Below are positions 1 to 55,443 of a DNA stretch of 64,000 nucleotides, piece by piece; the first letter of the stretch is position 1, and each line of letters opens with the position of its first letter. The stretch lies in assembly GCF_963853765.1 (NCBI RefSeq), contig NC_088861.1, positions 26,350,001 to 26,414,000 on the forward strand. The letters are read 5' to 3'. The notes below the pieces were generated by a model. That model was given only the letters and a program-made list of their open reading frames with translations. It ran no database searches and was not told the origin of the DNA. The position numbers and the translations under genes are program-made. Source of the DNA: Magallana gigas (lineage: Eukaryota).

Positions 1-67
1 AATCCAATGTTTACTCAACGAGAAAGTATACAGACATGATCAGATTCTACAAGCCATCCGGAGATCA

Positions 68-910
68 GTGAAAGGAGAAGCAGCCAACATCCTCATGAGA
101 CTCGGACCAGGAGCAACAATAGATAGCATCATTCAGAAAATGAACTCCATCTACGATACTATTGACAGTTGTCAAAGAATACTTGGACAATTCTATAGTG
201 CTCAACAAGAGGGAAATGAAAGTGTTTCTGACTGGGGATGTAGACTTGAACAAATCATAAATAAAGCTGTGATGCATGGTGAAGTTCGACATTCTCAAGT
301 TGACAATATGTTACGTCATGCATTCTGGGATGGACTTCGATCTGACTTGAAGGATATATCTGGATACATCCATGATAAAATTCTGTCATTTGATGAACTT
401 AGATCAGAACTAAGAGCAATTGAACAGGACCATGAGAGAAGAAAAGTAAACAAAGGAAAGAAAACTGGACCAACCGTTATGAGTGTTACTCACGAAGAAG
501 ATGAAGCTTCCGGTATGGATGACATCAAAGGGATGCTACTCAAATTAACAGCTGATGTGCAACAACTGAAAGATGATCGTCTACAGCAACCTCAGACTCC
601 ATATCATAGAAACTTCTTCCCTAGAAACAATGGAGCACGCTTTCAACATCCAGTTGTACCTCGTCCACAAGTACCCATACAACAACAACAGTTTGGACAA
701 CAACAACAGAGTTCATTCAGAGGTCAACAAGTAAATTACTTCCAAGCAAGACAACAAAGACCTGGACAAAGTTCAATGGGACCTAATGGACTACCTATAT
801 GTTATAGATGTGGACAGGAAGGACACGTTCAGTATGGATGTCGAGTGAGAACAGACCATGTCAGCAGACCGTTAAACTACAGAGGACTAGCATCGAGAGG
901 CAGACGCTAG
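68..910 (+). CDS. gag: Gypsy Gag (C-terminal part, CCHC zinc knuckle)
   Basis: CYRCGQEGHVQYGC = CX2CX4HX4C knuckle, Q-rich linker and a PNMA/Gag-like capsid region (FYSAQQEGNESVSDWGCRLE). The frame may continue upstream of 68. Confidence 0.9.
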   Translation: MKGEAANILMRLGPGATIDSIIQKMNSIYDTIDSCQRILGQFYSAQQEGNESVSDWGCRLEQIINKAVMHGEVRHSQVDNMLRHAFWDGLRSDLKDISGYIHDKILSFDELRSELRAIEQDHERRKVNKGKKTGPTVMSVTHEEDEASGMDDIKGMLLKLTADVQQLKDDRLQQPQTPYHRNFFPRNNGARFQHPVVPRPQVPIQQQQFGQQQQSSFRGQQVNYFQARQQRPGQSSMGPNGLPICYRCGQEGHVQYGCRVRTDHVSRPLNYRGLASRGRR

Positions 911-1851
911 GCCATGGTCAACCAATACAGAGCCTCACTGAATTACAACAACAAATACCAGGACTGATGGGAGAACAGAATATTATACACGTTAACATCA
1001 ATGGTGTAGATACCGCAGCTTTACTTGACACTGGAGCTACAGTGTGTACCATCAACACTGACTTTTACAATTCTTATCTACAAGATGTTCCACTTCATTC
1101 GTTGGACGATATTATTAAAATCAAATGTGCAGACGGAGAGAACATGCCATACTTAGGATATATCAAAGTAACTGTCAGCACTGAAGATATTAGTTCACCA
1201 AATACGAATGACTGTCTTATGTTAGTTGTACCGACAACTGATTACAGTAAGAAAGTTCCAGCTTTAATTGGTACAAACTTTATTAAGAATATCATGAACT
1301 GTGTGAAACAACAAAATGGCGAAAGATTTCTGCAAAATACCCAAATGAAAACACCATGGTACTTAGCATTTAGATGTGTCGCTCTACGAGAGAAAGAACT
1401 TAACCGCAATAGAAACATTCTAGGCATTGTTAAATCAGCAGAGACTTGTAGTATAATCATACCACCAAACAAGGAAGTGACAATATCTGGATTCATAGAT
1501 AGACAGATACCATACCAACCTGTTTGTGCAGTACTTCAGAAAACTAGTGGATCTGTTATACCAGATGACCTTGACATTTCTCCATCCTTAGTGTCATACA
1601 GATACAAAGACAACTATGAAGTAGAAGTCAACATCAGTAACATCACTACAAGAACTGTCAAGATACCGCCTAAAGCGTTGTTGTGTGAGCTACATCCTGT
1701 ACTTATTGAAGATGTTCAACCACAAACTACCTCAATAGATTCGGAAAATCAAGATGAATTTAGTGAAAATTTCATCAACCAATCTGACACAAAATCAACA
1801 GCAATATGGATACAGAATATTGGAACAAAACAAAGACATTTTCTCGACTAG
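871..1851 (+). CDS. Gypsy aspartic protease plus spacer domain, in the -1 frame relative to gag
   Basis: ORF 808..1851 contains ALLDTGATVC (retropepsin D-T-G) and LIGTNFI. It overlaps the gag end at the G TTA AAC heptamer. Confidence 0.88.
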   Translation, partial: VKLQRTSIERQTLGHGQPIQSLTELQQQIPGLMGEQNIIHVNINGVDTAALLDTGATVCTINTDFYNSYLQDVPLHSLDDIIKIKCADGENMPYLGYIKVTVSTEDISSPNTNDCLMLVVPTTDYSKKVPALIGTNFIKNIMNCVKQQNGERFLQNTQMKTPWYLAFRCVALREKELNRNRNILGIVKSAETCSIIIPPNKEVTISGFIDRQIPYQPVCAVLQKTSGSVIPDDLDISPSLVSYRYKDNYEVEVNISNITTRTVKIPPKALLCELHPVLIEDVQPQTTSIDSENQDEFSENFINQSDTKSTAIWIQNIGTKQRHFLD

Positions 1852-4800
1852 TGATACAGACATTGGTCACAGTAACAGAGTACAACACAAGATAAACATG
1901 AATGATGAAGTTCCTTTCAAGCAAAGACACAGGAGAATTCCGCCATCAATGTTCCAAGAAGTTCGAGACCATCTACAGCAATTATTAACAGCAGGAATCA
2001 TAAGAAGATCAGAATCACCATGGACTAGTAACGTCGCACTGTGTAGAAAGAAAAACGGTGATCTGCGCATGTGTGTCGATTATAGACAGTTAAACGCAAG
2101 AACAATTAAAGATGCATATGCACTTCCTAGAATAGAAGAAATATTAGACTCTCTTGGTGGAAACTCATACTTTTCTGTCCTCGATATGAAGAGCGGATAT
2201 CATCAAGTTGAATTGTTTGAAGATCATAAACAGAGAACAGCATTCACAGTAGGACCTTTGGGATTTTTCGAGTATAATCGCATGCCATTTGGTTTAGCTA
2301 ACGCCCCCGCAACGTATCAACGACTCATGGAAAACTGTCTAGGAGATCTAAATCTGAACATTTGTTTCATCTACCTTGATGATCTTATAGTATTTTCAAA
2401 AACTTTTGAAGAACACGTTAAAAGACTGCAAAGCATATTCCAATGTATCAGAGAGAACAATTTAAAACTTTCACCTAAAAAATGTCAATTTTTCATGGAT
2501 AAAGTGAAATACGTAGGTCACGTAGTTTCTAAAAATGGAATCGAACCAGATCCAGACAAGATTGAAAAAGTTGTGAATTGGCCTAGACCAACCAAACCAG
2601 ATGAAGTAAGACAGTTTGTTGGATTCGTTGGTTATTATCGACGTTTCATCAAAGACTTCACAAAGATTGCGAAACCATTAAATCAGTTGATGCCACCCAC
2701 TTCACAGAAGCGCCGAAAGAATTCCAAAGCACCGCCATCTTGGGAATGGGGAGGAGATCAAGAGAAATCATTTCAACAACTCAAAAGACATTTATCATCA
2801 CCACCAATATTAGGATTTCCAAATTACAATGAACCATTTGAACTTCATACAGACGCCTCTTTGTTAGGACTTGGCGCAGTTCTCTATCAGCTACAAGACA
2901 ACACAAAGAGAGTAATAGCTTATGCAAGTCGAGGTTTAAGCAAATCTGAAAAACGCTACCCTGTACATAAACTGGAATTTCTAGCCTTAAAATGGAGCAT
3001 TTGTGAAAAATTCAAAGACTATCTCTACGGACAAACCTTTAAAGTTTATACAGACAATAATCCTCTAACTTATGTTCTATCAACAGCACATCTTGATGCA
3101 ACAAGTCAACGATGGATAGCAAATTTAGCATCATTTAACTTCGATATTATTTATCGACCAGGAAAATCTAACAACGATGCAGATAGCTTAAGCCGTTTAC
3201 CTGGACTGATAAACCAAAACCATGAGAAAACTTGCAACATCTCAAGAGAAGCAATCCAATCCATTTGCAATGCCATTAATGTGTCGCCTTACGCAGAATG
3301 TCTTGCCATAGATTGTGAATCCATAAAAGAAGATTTGATTCAGCCAGAAATTGATGAAGAAATAGACATCACTACCGCCCAATACAATGATCCAATTTTG
3401 AAATTTTGGTTTCCATACATTAGGAGCAAAGTCAAACCATTCAGAAAAGAGATGCCAACATCTCCAGAACATATGACAATGTACAGAAATTTTGAGAAGC
3501 TGAAAATCATCAATGAAATCATATACAGAGAAACTCTTGTCCAGAAAAAGAAGAAGTATCAACTACTATTACCATCATCGTACATACCAACAATTCTGAA
3601 ATCACTACATGATGATATGGGTCACCCTGGGAGAGATAAAACAACATCATTGATACAAGACCGATTCTTCTGGCATAGAATGACAGTTGACATAGAGGAA
3701 TACATTAAAAAATGTCAAAGATGTATATTGAGAAAATCACCTGAAAATCACAAAGCACCTCTTGTAAACATCGAAACTTGTCAACCTTTGGAACTTTTGT
3801 GCTTAGATTTTCTTACCCTAGAAACATCTAAAGGAGGTTACGAAAATGTACTTGTCATCACCGACCATTTTACCAGATATGCACAAGCCATTCCAACAAG
3901 AAATCAAACCGCAAAAACAACAGCTGATGTTTTATTTAATAACTTTATCATCCATTATGGAATACCAAAGAAAATCCACACCGACCAAGGAGCAAATTTT
4001 GAAAGTAACCTTATCAAAGAACTATGTGAAATTACTGGTGTGATGAAATCAAGAACTACACCTTATCACCCAATGGGAAATGGACTCTGTGAAAGATTCA
4101 ATCGTACTTTAATCAAGATGTTAGGAACTCTACACCCAGAACAGAAGAAAGACTGGAAGAAACATATTGGTCCGATAGTCCACTGTTATAACTGTATGAA
4201 ACAATCTTCAACAGGACAGACCCCATTCTATCTTATGTTCGGCAGAGAACCCCGACTACCTATTGACTTAGCTTTTAAAACAAATCCATATGAAGATAAA
4301 CAGACAATGACTCATTACATAGAGAAACTTAAAGAAAGACTTGAAACATCCTACAATTTGGCACAACAGAATGTAAAACAATCTCAGGAAAAACAGAAAG
4401 ATTTTTATGATAGAAAAGTAAGAGGGGCAACATTCAAAGCAGGAGATAGAATTCTCGTCAAGATAGTGTCTTTCACTGGAAAACACAAAATTGCCGACAA
4501 ATGGGAGAGTGAACCGTACCTAGTACTTTCACAACCAAATCCTGATATTCCTGTTTATAGAGTCCAGCGAGAAGACAAATCAGGAAAAGTACGAACTTTG
4601 CATAGGAATTTATTACTTCCTTTGAATTTTATACCACCAGAAAGAATCAACATATTACCAAAGCCAGTACCAAGAAAGAGGAAATTGAAAAACAAATCAG
4701 AAGAGCCAACTCCAACTGAGCCTGTTAAATCAGACACAGACAGTGATGAAGACATGGACTTCCCACATGACGTCATACATGTTCCTCACACTGCTGCTGA

Positions 4801-5224
4801 GAAGATCTTGGGAGAAGATGTTGGTGACATGGATGCAGGTGATATTTTGGAACCTGTCCATGAACCACATATCGCAGAAGAGGACTTCTTACATGATGCA
4901 GATGCAGATGCAGATGCTGAAGAAGATGAAGAACAACAGCCGGCTGATCGAAACGCTATCCAGCATTTGGATACTAATGATGAGGAGGAAGATGCAGAAT
5001 CCCAGGAACTTGAAGATTCACCAGAACCTCAAGTCCGTAGATCATCAAGAGTTAGAAGAAAACCAACATGGATGAAGACAGGACAATTTCTGGTAAATCA
5101 ACACGTAGCAGAAACAAGTTGGAGAGACAAAGCTGAATTCCTTCTGAAAGTAACTAAAGAACCAGCTTTGAAAGACCATCGTGATAAACTATTGGATGGA
5201 CTTTTAAAAGTTATTGTGAAATAG
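1754..5224 (+). CDS. pol: Gypsy Pol: reverse transcriptase, RNase H, integrase
   Basis: RT (LRMCVDYRQLN, YLDDLIVFS), RNase H (LHTDAS, KLEFLALKW, TDNNPL), integrase HHCC (H..GHPG...CQRC), D-D-E (LDFL, HTDQG, LCERFNRT), GPY/F-like WESEPY and an acidic tail. No internal stop over 1156 aa. Confidence 0.95.
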   Translation: MNLVKISSTNLTQNQQQYGYRILEQNKDIFSTSDTDIGHSNRVQHKINMNDEVPFKQRHRRIPPSMFQEVRDHLQQLLTAGIIRRSESPWTSNVALCRKKNGDLRMCVDYRQLNARTIKDAYALPRIEEILDSLGGNSYFSVLDMKSGYHQVELFEDHKQRTAFTVGPLGFFEYNRMPFGLANAPATYQRLMENCLGDLNLNICFIYLDDLIVFSKTFEEHVKRLQSIFQCIRENNLKLSPKKCQFFMDKVKYVGHVVSKNGIEPDPDKIEKVVNWPRPTKPDEVRQFVGFVGYYRRFIKDFTKIAKPLNQLMPPTSQKRRKNSKAPPSWEWGGDQEKSFQQLKRHLSSPPILGFPNYNEPFELHTDASLLGLGAVLYQLQDNTKRVIAYASRGLSKSEKRYPVHKLEFLALKWSICEKFKDYLYGQTFKVYTDNNPLTYVLSTAHLDATSQRWIANLASFNFDIIYRPGKSNNDADSLSRLPGLINQNHEKTCNISREAIQSICNAINVSPYAECLAIDCESIKEDLIQPEIDEEIDITTAQYNDPILKFWFPYIRSKVKPFRKEMPTSPEHMTMYRNFEKLKIINEIIYRETLVQKKKKYQLLLPSSYIPTILKSLHDDMGHPGRDKTTSLIQDRFFWHRMTVDIEEYIKKCQRCILRKSPENHKAPLVNIETCQPLELLCLDFLTLETSKGGYENVLVITDHFTRYAQAIPTRNQTAKTTADVLFNNFIIHYGIPKKIHTDQGANFESNLIKELCEITGVMKSRTTPYHPMGNGLCERFNRTLIKMLGTLHPEQKKDWKKHIGPIVHCYNCMKQSSTGQTPFYLMFGREPRLPIDLAFKTNPYEDKQTMTHYIEKLKERLETSYNLAQQNVKQSQEKQKDFYDRKVRGATFKAGDRILVKIVSFTGKHKIADKWESEPYLVLSQPNPDIPVYRVQREDKSGKVRTLHRNLLLPLNFIPPERINILPKPVPRKRKLKNKSEEPTPTEPVKSDTDSDEDMDFPHDVIHVPHTAAEKILGEDVGDMDAGDILEPVHEPHIAEEDFLHDADADADAEEDEEQQPADRNAIQHLDTNDEEEDAESQELEDSPEPQVRRSSRVRRKPTWMKTGQFLVNQHVAETSWRDKAEFLLKVTKEPALKDHRDKLLDGLLKVIVK

Positions 5225-5285
5225 ACTTTCATATTCTTTTAAACCAGCAAAATGATGGGACATCATTTTCAAGCAGGGGGGAGAG

Positions 5286-6477
5286 TGTAATAGGGTGCAT
5301 TTTATGATAATTACATTCATGCATATTATTCATATTTCATCTTCAACATCATCATCATCATCCTATATTCCATATTTTACATGTACATATTTAGAAACAG
5401 ACTACTATCCCTATAACTCCCTGTCTTTTATGCATCTATCAAGTAATCATTATTTAATTACATATTCTAGTGGCTTCTGATATTTTATAGCCCTAAGTCA
5501 TTTCACCTGTATGGTCACTTACATACATGTGGACAAGATCAGGTGGTTTACTTAGCCAATAGTATGTTTTTATGATTTTTTCCCGCTTTAACTGAGTAGC
5601 CTTTGTGACAGACCAAGGCTAGGATTCTTATGAGTAAGACCTGATTTCTTTAAGAGACGATTTACCTTATTTATTTATTTCATCAACACATTTGAAGCAG
5701 TCAGTTATAGTAAGTGTTTTTATTTTTTGGTATTCTTGAACTTTAATATATAATTTAATAGATGATAATGATATTTTCTATTAATTGGTACATTTGGCTA
5801 ATTCTACTTGTTTGAGGTTATAATACCTTATTTATGAAAGAATGTATTTTATAAATTATTCCAGTAATTCATAGTTCTGATATCTAAGCTATAGTATCGC
5901 ATTTCTAATATATGTGAAAGGTTAGTTATTGTTACCATTATGATATTTAATACTTGTAGTTAGAGACTAGCTACCATTGTCAGAGTAATCTGCAGGATTG
6001 TGCATGAAACCTTGTTCCATAAACAGGTGATCGTTGCAAAGTTATATTTTTATATTTATTTTATGTATCTTGATAAAATGTAATCTACAAAGGAGTTACA
6101 TTGAAAGTATATGTTTTTATTTAATTAAATATTGATATTGATAAAGATGTAGAGCATATTTCTATATTTTTGTAAATTGTGTTCAAGGGCAGTAACTCTT
6201 CTTGACACTGAATTTATGATGCATTTTAATCAGAGTTATCCTTCTTTACAAATAGTTTGATTAGTGAACTCTGAGCATTAATGTATTTCACGAATATGTA
6301 TTTGAATATGATTGTATATTTTTATGCTGAAACTTATGTAAACATTGATCCTTTTATGCTGATATCTATGAATTATATTACAGGGTTTAAATCCTTTAAT
6401 CCTATCCATGTATCCGAATAAAATGAAGAACCCTTAAAGTGGACTTGTTTGTTTCTTTGGGACAACCCACTATCACA
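5286..6477 (+). repeat. 3' LTR (about 1.19 kb) of the Gypsy element
   Basis: Begins TGTAATAG right after the PPT AGGGGGGAGAG. Ends CTATCACA (7/8 inverted match to the start). AATAAA at 6417-6422. The 5' LTR is not in the window to confirm the boundary. Confidence 0.75.
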
Positions 6478-6900: not shown

Positions 6901-6982
6901 GATGCTGTATATGTAACATGTTTGTAAAACATTTCTTATTTGAAATATTTAAACCTAAATAACATTTTGTTTATATTTACAG

Positions 6983-9629
6983 GATATTGACAGATTGGCT
7001 AAACTTGGATTGTGCACGACTTCAAAGTCCATTTCTAAGAAACTTTCATCATGGGAAGCGTTTCTAGATTCAGAAATACTTGATATCAAGAAGAATTGGA
7101 GTGAAGGCGGAGAATTGAAATACCAATTGATAGGTGATAATTGGGACAAGAATATTATCCCCACATACCGCACCTCCCAAAGCAAAACCATTTCATTACA
7201 TCTCTTCAATGTGATAGCGGTTGTAGATAGGGTGATTCCAAGCACTTCATTGGAGGCAGATGAGGTGGCCCAGATGTCTGCAGTCAACTTTATTCCATCT
7301 TTAGATGATCAGGCTTTGCTCTTGCAAGAATTGACATTCCTAATGGCCACATCAGTAATTCAAAACTTGGACCAAATGCATGACATCTTTGAGCATATCT
7401 ATCCAAAGCATTTGAAACATAGATACAGTGACTTTTCTGGCATTAAAACAAAGCAGGTGTGTCTTAAAATCTTTACCATTTTTATTTGCTTACTTGAACA
7501 GAAAGCTTAATCAAATTTAAATCACATGTGACTGTCACTAATATTCTGTTTACAAACTTGTCAGATTTTTATTTGTTTCTACAACTACTGTGTCAACTTT
7601 AATAATTCTATTTTGGCACAAATATTCTTGATTTGGGTTTCAAGTTTATTGCAGACACCATGCCCTATTACATGAACATGAATTTTAAGTAGCGATTGCA
7701 AATTAGCGAAAATATGGTGGGGTCATACAAATTTACATACTATTTACTTTTAGATCTTGAAAAGCTTATAGTTTCCCTCTTGTCCAGTTCTCATTTTATT
7801 TTTATGAAGATATATCATAAGGTTTCTTATATTGCAGTACTCCATAGGATTGTTCGACTGCAACGAGAATAAGACTCAAGATGTTATCCAGTTATTGAAA
7901 GGCTTGACCGAGAAATATGTTCCCATGAAAGATGGAGAAATAGCAGAGGAAGTGTTTTTTGGAGGTTCAACTTTTTAGCAATTTTTTTTTATATATAATA
8001 ATATACAACATCAATTAGTTTATATCTGATTCATGTACATGTGCCACTATGTATACCCAATAAATAATCCACAGATGTAATTGTGTAATTGATTATTTTA
8101 ATGCATATTCTCATTCTTTTAGGAGATAGATTAACTGATGAGCGCATTCAAGGCGCACAGAATGCCATGTCAAATGCTGGGTCTGTAAAAGAAAGTCTCA
8201 AAGGATTCATTTCCAAAATAGAAGACTGGCACAGAATGATGAACTTTTTAGAGGTAACATATAATACATGGACTACAATTCTAATTTTTGGTGTTAATTA
8301 CATCTATGNNNNNNNNNNNNNNNNNNNNNNNNNNNNNNNNNNNNNNNNNNNNNNNNNNNNNNNNNNNNNNNNNNNNNNNNNNNNNNNNNNNNNNNNNNNN
8401 NNNNNNNNNNNNNNNNNNNNNNNNNNNNNNNNNNNNNNNNNNNNNNNNNNNNNNNGCTAACCTATAGTACAGCATCACAAACAGACAGAGGAACATTGTA
8501 TTATTTTCGGAATTTATTGAATGCTAGGAACGTGAAACATGATGTGAAAAACTCATTCCGAGCATATAAAATGCTTTACTATTCAGTATTTGATGCCATA
8601 TGCTGCACCATGTTTTTGAAAGAATTTGGCAAGAGTGAATTTGATTCACAAATTGATTTACCAGAAGGGTTTCAAGATGAAAGTGACGACAAGAAAATAA
8701 CGTGGATGAACGACTTGTGCCAAACGATAGTGAAAAAATGGTTTTTTGACAACAAAGATGACATATTTGAAGAGTTAAGAGCGATTTTGGAAGACCCTAA
8801 TCACCCTGAGAACTATTGGTTAGATACTGATGAAGATGGTCATTTCAAATGTCACTTTTGTGACAAATCGTATGCATCTGTGGGAAGCTTGAAAGCGCAT
8901 GAGACTATCAAACACCAGCATGTTGTGCCCACCAAAAAAAAAAAGTCTTCACCAGCACCATGTAAAGATACAGATGAATTATTTAACTACATTGTATTAG
9001 TGTTTAAACTTACAGCTTTACTAAAGAATCTTGATACAGCAATTGACATGGGAGATGGAGCAAGATCTGTGCGATCAGCTAAATATGAAATGCCGATATT
9101 TAATAAAACAAACAAACTGAAATATGTTATTGGATGTGTACAATTGGTCGACATGAGTGAAAATCCCCATACTCTTACCAGTCAACAGAGGGAGCGCTTT
9201 ATTGCCAACCGAACAATTAACCTGCAGGGAGGAAAAAACAACAATATCGCTTTGGACGAATATATTGAAATGATCAATCGTGACAGTAAGAACATTGTTT
9301 CAGGCCATCAAACCAAAGAGAACATTATTGAACGTTCCAAGCAATTTCCACATTTAATCAACTACGTTAAAAACTTCGATGTGATTTCTGAAATAAAAGG
9401 CCGAAAAGGGTTCCACAAACTTCCAAATTATAAAGTGGATGTTTCAAAGATAGCAAAAGAACTCTTGGAAATTAGTTGTTTAGAATATCAGCCAAAGAGA
9501 CAATTGCATTGTCGAGACCTTTCTGTGGACAAGGACCCGTACTCTAATTCGATCAAAGGATTGCCAATCATGATTCACAGACACAAACCGTCAACTCCAT
9601 TTAGTCGTTTGCGCAATAGAAAGTACTAA
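6983..9629 (+). CDS. Academ-type DDE transposase (DUF6589-like), multi-exon, 5' exon(s) missing
   Basis: GT-AG exons 6983-7456, 7838-7964, 8123-8253 and (gap)8457-9629 join in frame. Motifs IGDNWD, FGGDRLTDER, IEDWHRMMNFL, DRGTLYYFRN, NIALDEYIEMINR. An N-gap (8309-8455) hides one junction. Confidence 0.85.
8309..8455. other. Assembly gap (147 N)
   Basis: Run of N. Confidence 1.
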
Positions 9630-10264: not shown

Positions 10265-10955
10265 TTTTTTTGGGAGTGGATTTTAATCAGCTCTCCTATG
10301 CAGTTACTCTGGCAAACCGGAAGTGAAACAGTGTTTCCACTTAAGCACAAATCATAACCGCTGGCAAGACTTAGTACTTTAAAATAATTGATAAAATTAG
10401 TTAAATACCTTGAAAATAGTCAGATTTTAAAAGGTACGAACAATTCAGGTAATTTTGTAGCAGTATGATTCAGAATAGAAGACTATATTGAACTCTGGCA
10501 TAGGAATTATTCCTACGCCAGAGTTCATTTTAGTCTCGTTCAACCAGACGCTCGGCTCACTGCTTGTCGGAGATTTGTCCGTAAATCTCTGACAAGCAGA
10601 GAGACTCTCTGCTTGTCGGATATTTATGGAGACAGCCGAGCGTCTGGTTAAACAAGACAAGAGTTTATTATTGCTAGGATCCTTAAATAATCAAGAATTA
10701 TTTCAATTACTGATACATGAGTACATAGCTTGATAAAATTAATTTTATCTACACGTATGAACACACACAACATGATTCCAATGGGGTATTTTTGTTGGAA
10801 AAACCCTGAAATTCATACCGGTATTAGAAAAATATGTGCGTAATTCTAATGGTGCCAAGAAACTACTTGCCATTCGAAATTACATATCATTGATTTTAAA
10901 TCAAATAGTAATCCATAAAATCAACTCCCATCCGTACTTACGTACTTTGATTTTT
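10265..10955 (+). mobile_element. Helentron-associated non-autonomous element (HINE/DINE-like), copy A
   Basis: 5' subTIR GGGAGTGGATTTT with adjacent partial inverted repeat; 3' subTIR AAAATCAACTCCC (10917-10929) plus short hairpin; T-rich flanks. Homologous to 55082-55950 and 57289-57800. Confidence 0.7.
10531..10660. mobile_element. Academ-type MITE (TAGTCTCG termini) nested in HINE copy A
   Basis: TIR TAGTCTCGTTCAACCAGACGCTCGGCT / AGCCGAGCGTCTGGTTAAACAAGACAA with a degenerate 10-bp TSD (GAGTTCATTT / GAGTTTATTA). Confidence 0.65.
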
Positions 10956-11077: not shown

Positions 11078-13146
11078 TTAACTATCAGACAAACTAAAAT
11101 CCATGTCTAGTTCATCAACATTCCAATCATAATCAATAGTATCATCACTGTCACTTGAGCAATTCAAACATTCATTATTAAACAATTTTTCAATATCTAA
11201 CACAGAACAATGATTGCATTTGCACAATTCAGCACATAAATCACAGCATGTATGACATGTTTCGTCAGTAAATTTAAGTAAGTCAGTGTCGGATATGAAA
11301 TTTTTCAACAATTCTTTTCGGCGGCAATTCTGACAAGAAATAAAAGTTTTCACTTCTTTGTCTACATTTCGCAAATGGTGGGAATTGTAAATAATTAAAG
11401 CAACCGATGGTAAACCATCCCTTCCAACTCTGCCAACTGCTTGCACGAGATCTACAACTGATCGTGGAGGTCCATACAGAACTACTGAATTGCAATTCAG
11501 AACATCTACTCCCATTCCAAGAGCTAAAGTAGCAATCACTATTAGTACACAACTGTCTTTATTTCGTAATGCTGACACTATTTTCTCTTTTTTGTCCTCA
11601 GGAGTCTCTGAATGAAACATTTCAACTAGATTTGTACAGTTCTCAAGTTCTTTAACAACATGATTGTATAACTTAGAAACGTCTGATATGGAGTTGCAGT
11701 AAACAAGAGTTCTTGGAAATGATTCCCCAAGTAAACCAAGTGCATCTACTAGCCAGTAAATTGCAGTTTCAATTTCACTACTCACTTTCTTCACTACCAA
11801 TTTGATATTTGGCTTATTTGGGGAAATAGAGATCTGGGTAGTGTCATTTTCTCTTAATCCCATGACTTTCATGACACGTTTTTTTATCTTGTTGGTGCAT
11901 GTAGCACTGAGGGCCAGAACTGGTGCCGATGGAAACAGGGATCTCAGTTCTCCTACATGGCGGAACCACTTCCTAAAAACAAGATATTCATCGGAGTCGT
12001 CGTTCCCTCCCCTAAAAAAAAAATAGAACAAATCTTACTTAAAGAAACTATGATCCTTACCAGTCCTGTCTGTGTGACAAAGTCTCCCTCTATTATTGAT
12101 AATGAATAGAAACTGTTAATATAGGAGGGGTAAGGTTTAAGGATAAGGTTTTTCACAATATATTAAATACATGTACTTTTAAGAAGGGTTTTCCACTCTT
12201 CTTTCATCTATTTACATTTTTAATAAATTGAAAACTGTTTCATTCACTGAAAGTAGACTTTCCTAGTAATTTGTGTATTGTTTCATAATTTTGCACAATT
12301 TTAACTTTTACAATAATAAGATTGTTGGCAAATAATGGATGCAAAGAATTTAAAATCACCCTTTTTACAGTATCTGTTAAATAATTAAATCTTACCATGT
12401 TGCAATTGTGTGAAACTCATCTATCACAATCATGCCCACGTTGAAATTTTGTAACAGCTGTCGGAATTTTGAATCTCCAACAAGAGATTCAGGCGAAGCA
12501 AATAAAATGTCGAATTCTCCTCTGTTTATCAACTCATCCATCTCATGACTGCTACCTTTTGTAAAAGAACGGTTTTATCATCTTGTGTGGTCTGATCGTA
12601 TTTTTTGTCTTAACAGTTAATGAGATGCTGGTATTTTTTTTCTTAAAGTGATAGAAAATATGATAAAATTTTTAGACTAAACATATATAGCATATAGACT
12701 TGGTTAGACTTCAATAATGACGTCAATTACCACTATAAATCGCCACTGTGAACGTCAGAGAAATTTCGGAATAAATAGATGAGCATGCTGGTGCATGGTG
12801 TAATGTTTTATGACAAGTTAGGAAATTGAATCTTTAAATTACCTTTGTATGCAACACGTAGTTCTGAAATACTGTGAAGTCGCTCGACCTGGTCTTTCAT
12901 CAGGGCAAGTAAAGGACAACACACGATTATACGCTCAGTCTGTGGGCCTAGACGTCCTAGTTCCCGAACAACTGGGAGGTAAATTTGATACGGTAAAGAT
13001 TTACCGAATCCCGTTGGCAACACGGCAATACAGTCCTTTTTCGCTAGCATAGATTGCAGCATGTGGTATTGTTCAGTTTTCAAACTCTCCACTGAAAATT
13101 TTACACAAACGTTCTTTATCACTTCGTCCATGTTTACCTCCGCCAT
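11078..13146 (-). CDS. RecQ-like SF2 helicase of AcademH (3 exons, about 465 aa)
   Basis: Exons 13146-12843, 12555-12396 and 12011-11078 splice in frame via GT-AG. Motif I LPTGFGKS, Ia PLLALMKDQ, II DEFH, III LSAT, V ATLALGMGVD, VI QAVGRVGRDG, and a C-terminal Zn site (CRRKELL...CCDLC). Confidence 0.92.
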
Positions 13147-13358
13147 TTTCTAATACTTTCCAAGTTGGATTTCAGAGACAAAATTTGATTGGTTAGAAAA
13201 GTTCATAACCTGTAATTAGCATCCGATTAAATATTCATCGATAAAGGTCACTCGCATGTGAACCCTTATGCAGCTTCTTCAGACCTTCCACGCGACCATC
13301 AAAATAAAGGAGCTAGTGGAAGGTTTGATTTTAATCAGACTGCATTCGCCTACGACTA

Positions 13359-13662
13359 CCAGAAAATAGTGGTGTTTGATTATACTAGAGAAAGTAAAGA
13401 GCACATTAACTATGACCTACTGGAGGATCTCAAGAATGGGTCAATATGGTCACCCAAGTACCAGTCAGCGGTCAAATCCTGGAAGTTTAATGTCAAGGTG
13501 ATATGCTTTGCCAACTTCCCCCCTAAGTTCGAAGCCCTCAGTCACGACAGATGGTATGTTCTGGAGCTCAAGGACGGGAAACTCAGGAGGACCAGAATTC
13601 CCCAACCCCAAGCTCCACCCACCCCGTATGTTGTGGAATCATCGGCGTGCATAATAGTCTGA
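13359..13662 (+). pseudogene. rep: CRESS-DNA virus-like Rep, C-terminal SF3 helicase fragment (nanovirus/alphasatellite-like); endogenous viral element
   Basis: KIVVFDYTRE (Walker B), NYDLLEDLKNGSIWSPKYQS (B'), VICFAN (motif C), LSHDRW (Arg finger), with no stops or frameshifts. Walker A and HUH motifs are absent. Confidence 0.85.
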
Positions 13663-13698
13663 ACTAACATGGCCGCCGAAACACGAGGTATTAATACG

Positions 13699-13872
13699 CC
13701 GAGCCCGATAGATATTTACATACCGAGCCCGAACTATTTATAGCATACCGTGCCCGATATATTTACCTGGTGACCGGTTACCGGTGCCCCGCTTTAAAAG
13801 CCGAGCGCATAACCAAAGCTAGGATAATGCGCTCGGCTGTAAGGGAGGTCACCATGGGGCACTTCCGGTCAC
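13699..13872. promoter_or_regulatory. Putative rolling-circle origin: 3 iteron-like repeats plus nested stem-loop
   Basis: CCG(A/T)GCCCGA...TATTTA at 13699, 13723, 13748. 12-bp perfect stem AGCCGAGCGCAT (13799-13810) / ATGCGCTCGGCT (13827-13838). Outer inverted pairs GTGCCCC/GGGGCAC and GTGACCGG/CCGGTCAC. Confidence 0.6.
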
Positions 13873-14449
13873 GTGATTTAATGGCGATAGGGATTAGACG
13901 TGTTTGAATTGGGCTCCGAGATTTTCACCATGTAAGTTATTATTAGTGGTTTTTTTCGGCCTCCCCTGGTTTGACTCTGAGGGTGTTCTTCATATTTGCG
14001 CAGAGTCCAGGTAGGAGAAGGTGTGTTAATTAATTTGTCTGAAGGATTTCAAGATCTGGTATGTTTGGTTTTAGTCTATATAGTCTTATATTACAGTTGT
14101 TGAGTTATTAAGATTTGGATTTAATTATAGCTTATTTATTAAAAATTAACAAATTGCACGGTTAATTCATTTACAACAGCAGTGCACCTATCTGGCCTTA
14201 AATTCCATAATTTTGGTTAGTCAGTATTTCAATATATTAATTTGTAAATAAATGTGTAGATAACTCATTTTTTAATATTCAAAATAGGTTCAGCAAAGAT
14301 CACTTTGAATTGAATTCATATGCAAATATATAATGAAATATACAAGTGTTGTATAGTGTATTAGTATATATATACATGTATCACAGTTTACATTCATATA
14401 ATAAAGCACCATCTTCATATAACAAAGCACCATCTAACCATCTAAGCAG

Positions 14450-55354: not shown

Positions 55355-55443
55355 TAGTCTCGTTCAACTCGACGCTCGGCTGTCTCCGTAAATCCTTGTC
55401 GGAGATAAACGTTGTCAGCCGAGCGTTTGGTTGAACGAGACTA
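55355..55443. mobile_element. Academ-type MITE with 10-bp TSD
   Basis: GAATTCAATA|TAGTCTCGTTCAAC ... GTTGAACGAGACTA|GAGTTCAATA. Confidence 0.8.

Follow-up and report, generated by a model that had tools for sequence, protein, structure and literature searches.

Endogenous CRESS-DNA viral elements and Rep-only circles of the alphasatellite kind are among the closest described counterparts of the locus reported here. A second counterpart is AcademH, a group of DNA transposons that Kojima reportedly assigned to the Academ superfamily in 2020. With CRESS elements and Rep-only circles, the viral part of our locus shares HUH motifs I–III, an SF3 helicase and a stem-loop before rep, and its nearest Pfam-annotated neighbours are Viral_Rep; it differs in that its Rep is about twice as long, carries zinc-finger-like repeats and falls below the Pfam Rep cut-off, and in that its hairpin loop departs from the canonical nonamer. 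The family name AcademH is used as in PMC10045372 and PMC10799480, the former of which gives target duplications of 9–10 bp.

The CressRep ('XenRess') adomaviruses of lucinid clams, Adoma5233, 5353, 5398 and 6119, are described in PMC11071296 as circular genomes of 8.6–12.2 kb. CressRep is restricted to Bivalvia according to PMC12711042, and oyster CRESS viruses are treated in PMC10892194. Our locus resembles the clam viruses in bivalve association, in the genome size of its relatives and in an HUH plus SF3 Rep; it differs in lacking late genes. By eye, their Reps have unusual motifs in common with ours, namely F.L.F..A.KYK..KR close to motif I, NEF ahead of the HUH motif, and KY.TK.D, and the CressRep of Adoma9351 has a long acidic, cysteine-rich N-terminus (PMC11071296). 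Five short motifs of our Rep family had no informative match in the accessible supplements of that paper, only the four-letter SPKY, in unrelated proteins where seen. Searches of openly available literature turned up no account of this locus and none of an endogenous CressRep adomavirus.

The window is the whole 64,000-nucleotide stretch of Magallana gigas DNA that was analysed. We hold with high confidence that an endogenous viral unit of 2,300 bp has received an AcademH transposon in its rep gene; the unit itself is likely a deletion remnant of a bivalve CressRep virus.

The viral unit and its replication gene

The viral unit extends from L031:4751 to window position 13965 (2,300 bp) and contains rep, iteron-like repeats and a predicted hairpin origin, with no other gene and no capsid gene. 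Its features, and the LTR that received it, are as follows.

L031:4966-6556, outside the window: 5' part of the viral rep, abutting the left end of AcademH
13345–13662, plus strand: 3' part of the viral rep, covering Walker B and the remainder of the helicase, matched by 20 of 20 relatives
13663–13670, minus strand: predicted splice donor and first exon belonging to an opposite-strand gene that has been lost, suggested by the same 8-mer before the candidate capsid gene of the circular relative L062
13686–13762, unstranded: three iteron-like repeats, 24–25 bp apart
13799–13838, plus strand: hairpin with a 12-bp perfect stem and a 16-nt loop, the predicted rolling-circle origin
13846–13965, plus strand: right copy of a 120-bp terminal redundancy (left copy L031:4751-4871; 1 mismatch, 1 gap)
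13966–14390, plus strand: right part of an old LTR (left part L031:4625-4750)

The 5' part of rep is 530 codons long without a stop. It encodes cysteine/histidine repeats, a tract of acidic residues, the HUH motifs and Walker A, and its N-terminus is zinc-finger-like. The original prediction that the sequence 3' of the transposon junction is also Rep was borne out by 93% identity over 100 aa to the database protein P0002. As a query, the 5' part retrieved 21 unnamed Logan/ENA proteins, one of which (P0001) is the same truncated allele, the other 20 being 36–90% identical, the closest of them 82–90%. The motif that spans the insertion point is unbroken in 17 of 20 relatives, P0018 showing one substitution; since relatives match it across the insertion point, the AYDY residues are genuine Rep. 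HUH motifs I–III, then SF3 Walker A, Walker B and motif C, are kept across the relatives (alignment A1), as in a CRESS-type Rep. Neighbours with an assigned family in the Atlas were Viral_Rep/Gemini_AL1 at 0.76–0.78, which is a lead only. Hits to Pfam Rep families were below cut-off, with none for the 3' part; a PDB sequence search gave one weak zinc-finger match, and IMG/VR gave no close relative with P0002 and two weak loci with A2. All 43 database matches of the Rep family are unnamed. A tree of 31 rows groups the window Rep with P0002–P0008 and P0012 in a nine-member clade (support 95/99), with L062 outside. Because the 3' part diverges from its relatives after about position 13640, the last 40–50 residues are missing, and the family's C-terminal tail is absent from the window Rep.

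A predicted 128-nt intron (L031:4837-4964) would split the rep start codon (AT/GT...AG/G) at L031:4835-4965, and in the window at 13930–13965, where the right redundancy copy has the AT at 13930–13931; from these signals we infer that the start codon would be joined by splicing. The gene calls of P0003 and P0008 start in similar pyrimidine tracts, and the candidate capsid gene of L062 has the same split-start arrangement. Within the predicted intron lies a stretch of about 80 nt (L031:4864-4950) with A-box-like and B-box-like motifs and a T-run, a combination that we take to be Pol III-like; the right copy of the direct repeat reaches only the first bases of this stretch. Neither ARAGORN nor Rfam found a tRNA-like element in this stretch, and its folding was no better than that of shuffles (z -1.35).

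Of 12 loop positions compared with the hairpin that precedes rep in L062, whose loop contains TAGTATT, 10 are identical. The stem-loop of the predicted origin is present, with a degenerate nonamer in the window. Since the left end of the unit lies just past the hairpin, only one origin is present. The unit overlaps the LTR by 3 nt at its left junction; there is no target duplication, and target DNA is deleted. The two LTR pieces are 68–281 bp apart (about 100 in four) in seven sister LTRs in which both sides align. Beyond the LTR, window positions 14392–14436 are a short, very high-copy repeat, with contig depths of 17,000–51,000 in four runs.

A search of the 564-Mb assembly found a single DNA copy of the unit among the matches listed (40 of 64 candidates scored). 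Other Rep sequences were encountered. At G000:C8:42002000-42006300 (L044, L045) there is a second, decayed copy of the Rep family, 69–74% identical and split by an insertion of about 1.3 kb; some 2 kb of probable opposite-strand viral genes lie downstream, one with a weak match (E 6e-5) to an opposite-strand ORF of L060. Four near-identical copies of a different, classical CRESS Rep, 12–17 kb apart and with an internal deletion, occur at G000:C6:20289000-20335000, and a split copy lies elsewhere on C6, at 38897000-38903000 (L046–L051 and L056 for the two regions together). Two decayed, about 30% identical Rep copies at G000:C4:56107700 and 56317900 (L052, L054) each run into a long tandem repeat. 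A metagenome contig (L061:494-3385) carries a frameshifted Rep relative directly behind a Helitron-like ORF and is probably another endogenous copy.

Circular relatives and the origin of the unit

Six of the 21 Rep relatives, including P0005 (82% identical, contig of 10,660 bp), are on contigs of 10.0–10.7 kb; none is on a longer one, and this holds also among the 43. The most informative relative is L062, a circle of 10,269 bp whose two ends both fall in the lysine-rich linker of rep; its Rep, 45% identical to that of the window, is whole in P0057, on a contig of 10,240 bp. The rep gene occupies one strand, preceded by an 18-bp hairpin with a TAGTATT loop, and ORFs of 112–1,069 aa occupy the opposite strand. 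This layout of rep, hairpin and opposite-strand sequence is that of the window unit. Three of the small ORFs of L062 recur in L060, and L062:1-10269, L060 and L063 together outline a circular Rep virus of about 10 kb with small cysteine-rich ORFs.

One opposite-strand product of L062 is a candidate jelly-roll protein with 9 homologues. P0052, a homologue to which L062's own P0048 is 42% identical, was modelled from a 9-sequence alignment (pLDDT 51). The resulting low-confidence beta-sandwich is nearest to polyomavirus VP1 and to geminivirus, papillomavirus and nanovirus capsids (Z 7.4–6.6, with 7.4–6.9 for the first three; Foldseek E 3e-4), a likeness at the level of common arrangement only. 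Folding the candidate capsid of L062 from its sequence alone gave an unusable model (pLDDT 33), and the 1,069-aa ORF gave coiled-coil matches that were all sub-threshold. Compared with the CressRep adomaviruses of PMC11071296, L062 differs in having separate jelly-roll-like and coiled-coil-like proteins and no recognised fused Pentoncah. Under the broad definition, a circular genome of 9–20 kb, L062 fits at 10,269 bp, the window unit being 2,300 bp long. The parent virus was probably adomavirus-like in this broad sense. One query found no capsid homologue in the oyster genome. The relative at 45% identity and the contig sizes, on which a 10-kb parent rests, make it likely that the viral unit is a deletion remnant of a circular bivalve CressRep virus of about 10 kb.

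Six other runs were examined as contigs (X5, X6, X8, X9, X12 and X14); X14 was thinly covered at the site, and the five informative runs represent four coded studies. Such contigs show presence only. Several of the public runs in which the viral stretch occurs carry the label 'oyster metagenome'. In X5 and X8, self-closing contigs of 2,329–2,330 nt lead from the 5' part of rep through 494 letters into the beginning of the unit; window 13352–13845 is likewise 494 letters long, and 1,806 plus 494 gives 2,300. A record of equal length in X12 covers 13342–13970, the part that was compared. In X9, one 383-nt record bridges both sides of the site with the duplicated 9 bases in single copy. In X6 the site is filled, and the contig runs 29 bases into the transposon end. 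The site is therefore without the transposon in four runs and with it in one, and the contrast between the empty-site contigs and X6 means that the AcademH insertion is polymorphic. Contig depth over the viral unit, which is not a copy number, was similar to or below that of neighbouring DNA.

These contigs bear on the strongest alternative for the viral part, one compatible with the AcademH insertion. On this reading, what integrated was a circular replicon already without a capsid gene, of a defective or satellite-like kind, and the unit may exist free as a circle as well. In its favour, the 120-bp terminal redundancy points to a donor that was circular or concatemeric, rep and origin are precisely what the unit retains, X5, X8 and X12 agree in its length, with self-closing contigs, and four more distant relatives (P0014, P0021, P0060 and P0061) are on contigs of 2.2–2.3 kb. 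On the other hand, assembly software can circularise an integrated copy across its 120-bp repeat, and X6 has the same permutation despite the transposon; an X9 contig spans the left LTR junction; one shared integration explains the equal lengths; and the 2.2-kb contigs may be fragments. We regard this alternative as possible but doubtful. Its extended form is clearly less probable still: that the unit is a fossil of a naturally circulating Rep-plus-origin minicircle, without capsid, of an undescribed oyster virus of about 10 kb, and that free circles persist in some oysters. To that virus this reading would add, as a joint claim at the same low probability, a Rep with zinc fingers, start codons split by introns, an RNA of Pol III-like type within the rep intron and a polyomavirus-like jelly-roll capsid.

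It is very unlikely that the unit is a Replitron- or Helitron-like transposon with a Rep of the HUH class, which entered the chromosome through its own nicking. Its terminal direct repeats, the absence of a capsid gene, the predicted intron and the position of the relative L061 beside a Helitron-like ORF would suit such an element, but there is a single DNA copy in 564 Mb among the matches listed rather than many, the left end lies about 20 bp past the predicted nick, the ends are not at the hairpin and target DNA is deleted; moreover, the Rep has an SF3 helicase and its relatives are in virus-like circles. Capture of the unit at a chromosome break, as a 1.05-genome piece from a circular or concatemeric donor, appears reasonably probable.

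The AcademH insertion

The transposon features are listed below.

G000:C9:26344557-26344655, inverted: AcademH left end, 99 bp, 100% identical to the right terminal inverted repeat
13244–13342, minus strand: AcademH right terminal inverted repeat, 99 bp, with the element's true end at 13342
13343–13351, plus strand: target-site duplication of 9 bp, located in rep after Walker A and before Walker B; the 9-mer is repeated directly before the left end (L006:1492-1500)
11078–13146, minus strand: AcademH helicase gene, DEAD/Helicase_C (RecQ-like), in several exons (DEAD E 5e-10, Helicase_C E 6e-17)
6959–9629, plus strand: 3' exons of the AcademH transposase (DUF6589), its 5' exons being upstream of the window
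1–6477, plus strand: window part of a young Gypsy retrotransposon nested in AcademH (9.0 kb in total; 3' LTR 5286–6477; 4-bp duplication)

The element measures 18,786 bp with the nested Gypsy and about 9.8 kb without it. An AcademH to the left of the junction had been predicted, and both of its genes were found. The predicted transposase domain is DUF6589 (E 1.7e-15, above cut-off), which we take to be the Academ-type DDE transposase domain; a superfamily 2 (RecQ-like) helicase gene lies within the element, and transposase on the plus strand with helicase on the minus strand is the AcademH layout. The likeness to AcademH thus comprises a DDE-type transposase, a convergent DEAD/Helicase_C helicase, long terminal inverted repeats, a 9-bp duplication and non-autonomous sisters of about 100 bp. 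Nothing essential differs, the comparison being with AcademH in general; inserted into this copy are a Gypsy and a MITE. The Gypsy LTRs are 99.8% identical. MITEs with TAGTCTCGTTCAAC ends occur at window 10531–10660, 55355–55443 and 57556 and form a family different from the AcademH studied here; the first sits in AcademH, between its transposase and helicase genes, and the copy at 55355 has a 9-bp duplication.

The original prediction put the right terminus at 13358. The minus-strand string that it quoted does begin there, is unique in the window and stands 212 bp ahead of the helicase start codon (ATG at 13146), but it is made up of the 9-bp target duplication and rep codons, and the true end is 16 bp away, at 13342; the string is at none of the other ends, neither in sister loci L002–L030 nor at the left end. 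TAGTC-type termini, to which it had been likened, exist (10531, 55355 and 57556) but belong to the other family. Nor was the proposed duplication, CCAGAAAAT, present on the plus strand in the 13 kb upstream. Where the prediction looked for the missing parts, it was right: the left inverted repeat, the second copy of the 9-bp duplication and the 5' part of rep all lie beyond the window, the left end being 5.4 kb upstream of it. The termini read CAG...CTG.

A genome search with window 13000–14000, in which 40 of 64 candidates were scored, gave 70 matches, or 68 sister matches after removal of the locus itself and of one match to the viral repeat. None of these 68 extends to 13358; the furthest stops at 13349 and the majority at 13342. 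Comparison of sister copies had been proposed as a check, an end at 13358 in all of them counting against an element that extends further right; the sister copies end at 13342 with unrelated flanks, which differ in every sister locus, including L002 and L004 with their shared helicase-side sequence. Among 16 end pairs of sister mini-elements, 3 were dropped as mis-paired nested ends in L013; the remaining 13 have an exact 9-bp duplication in seven, an exact 10-bp one in one (eight exact in all), 7–8 of 9 bases matching in four, and one ambiguous case, in keeping with the inverted repeats and target duplications of AcademH. Since the genome searches scored 40 of 64 and 40 of 313 candidates, further full-length copies may be unseen.

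A stop-free frame (13231–13662) does cross the junction, as predicted, but it is a methionine-free chance frame and encodes no fusion protein. A 111-nt stretch of the same composition is stop-free in 9.5% of 20,000 shuffles, and the part derived from the inverted repeat has no Rep similarity (best E 1.2). A composite AcademH extending to the right, with Rep and origin as cargo, for which this frame and the origin-like repeats and hairpin just right of the junction might speak, can be dismissed in view of the perfect ends and duplication at 13342/13343, the sister matches stopping no further than 13349 (40 of 64 candidates scored), the absence of Rep from the 1.5-kb flanks of 27 of 27 sister loci, the half of rep outside the left end, and the empty allele in four runs. 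The other prediction, that AcademH inserted into a viral rep, held at every testable point, with the junction (13342) and duplication (13343–13351) revised. AcademH jumped into a viral replication gene, so there is no transposon–virus hybrid. The insertion is very probably an ordinary, recent and polymorphic one.

Order of insertions and significance

The order of nesting is LTR, viral unit, AcademH and Gypsy. A slightly longer-than-unit piece of a circular genome was likely captured into the old LTR by break repair. AcademH arrived later in a unit already present, likely by ordinary cut-and-paste transposition, splitting rep between Walker A and Walker B and leaving the 9-bp duplication; the Gypsy entered AcademH last.

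The junction is that of an ordinary transposon, and the question of a hybrid element is closed. The locus offers a dated series of four nested insertions, and the polymorphic AcademH can be genotyped. The viral unit is a recent chromosomal copy, with 1–3 differences from contigs of other runs, and represents a Rep family with 43 unnamed database members. It would link CressRep circles of about 10 kb, until now recovered by data mining from clam and environmental sequences alone, to germ-line infection in the oyster. There is nothing unusual in the nesting as such; the locus is of modest interest, as a recent trace of these viruses in the oyster germ line.
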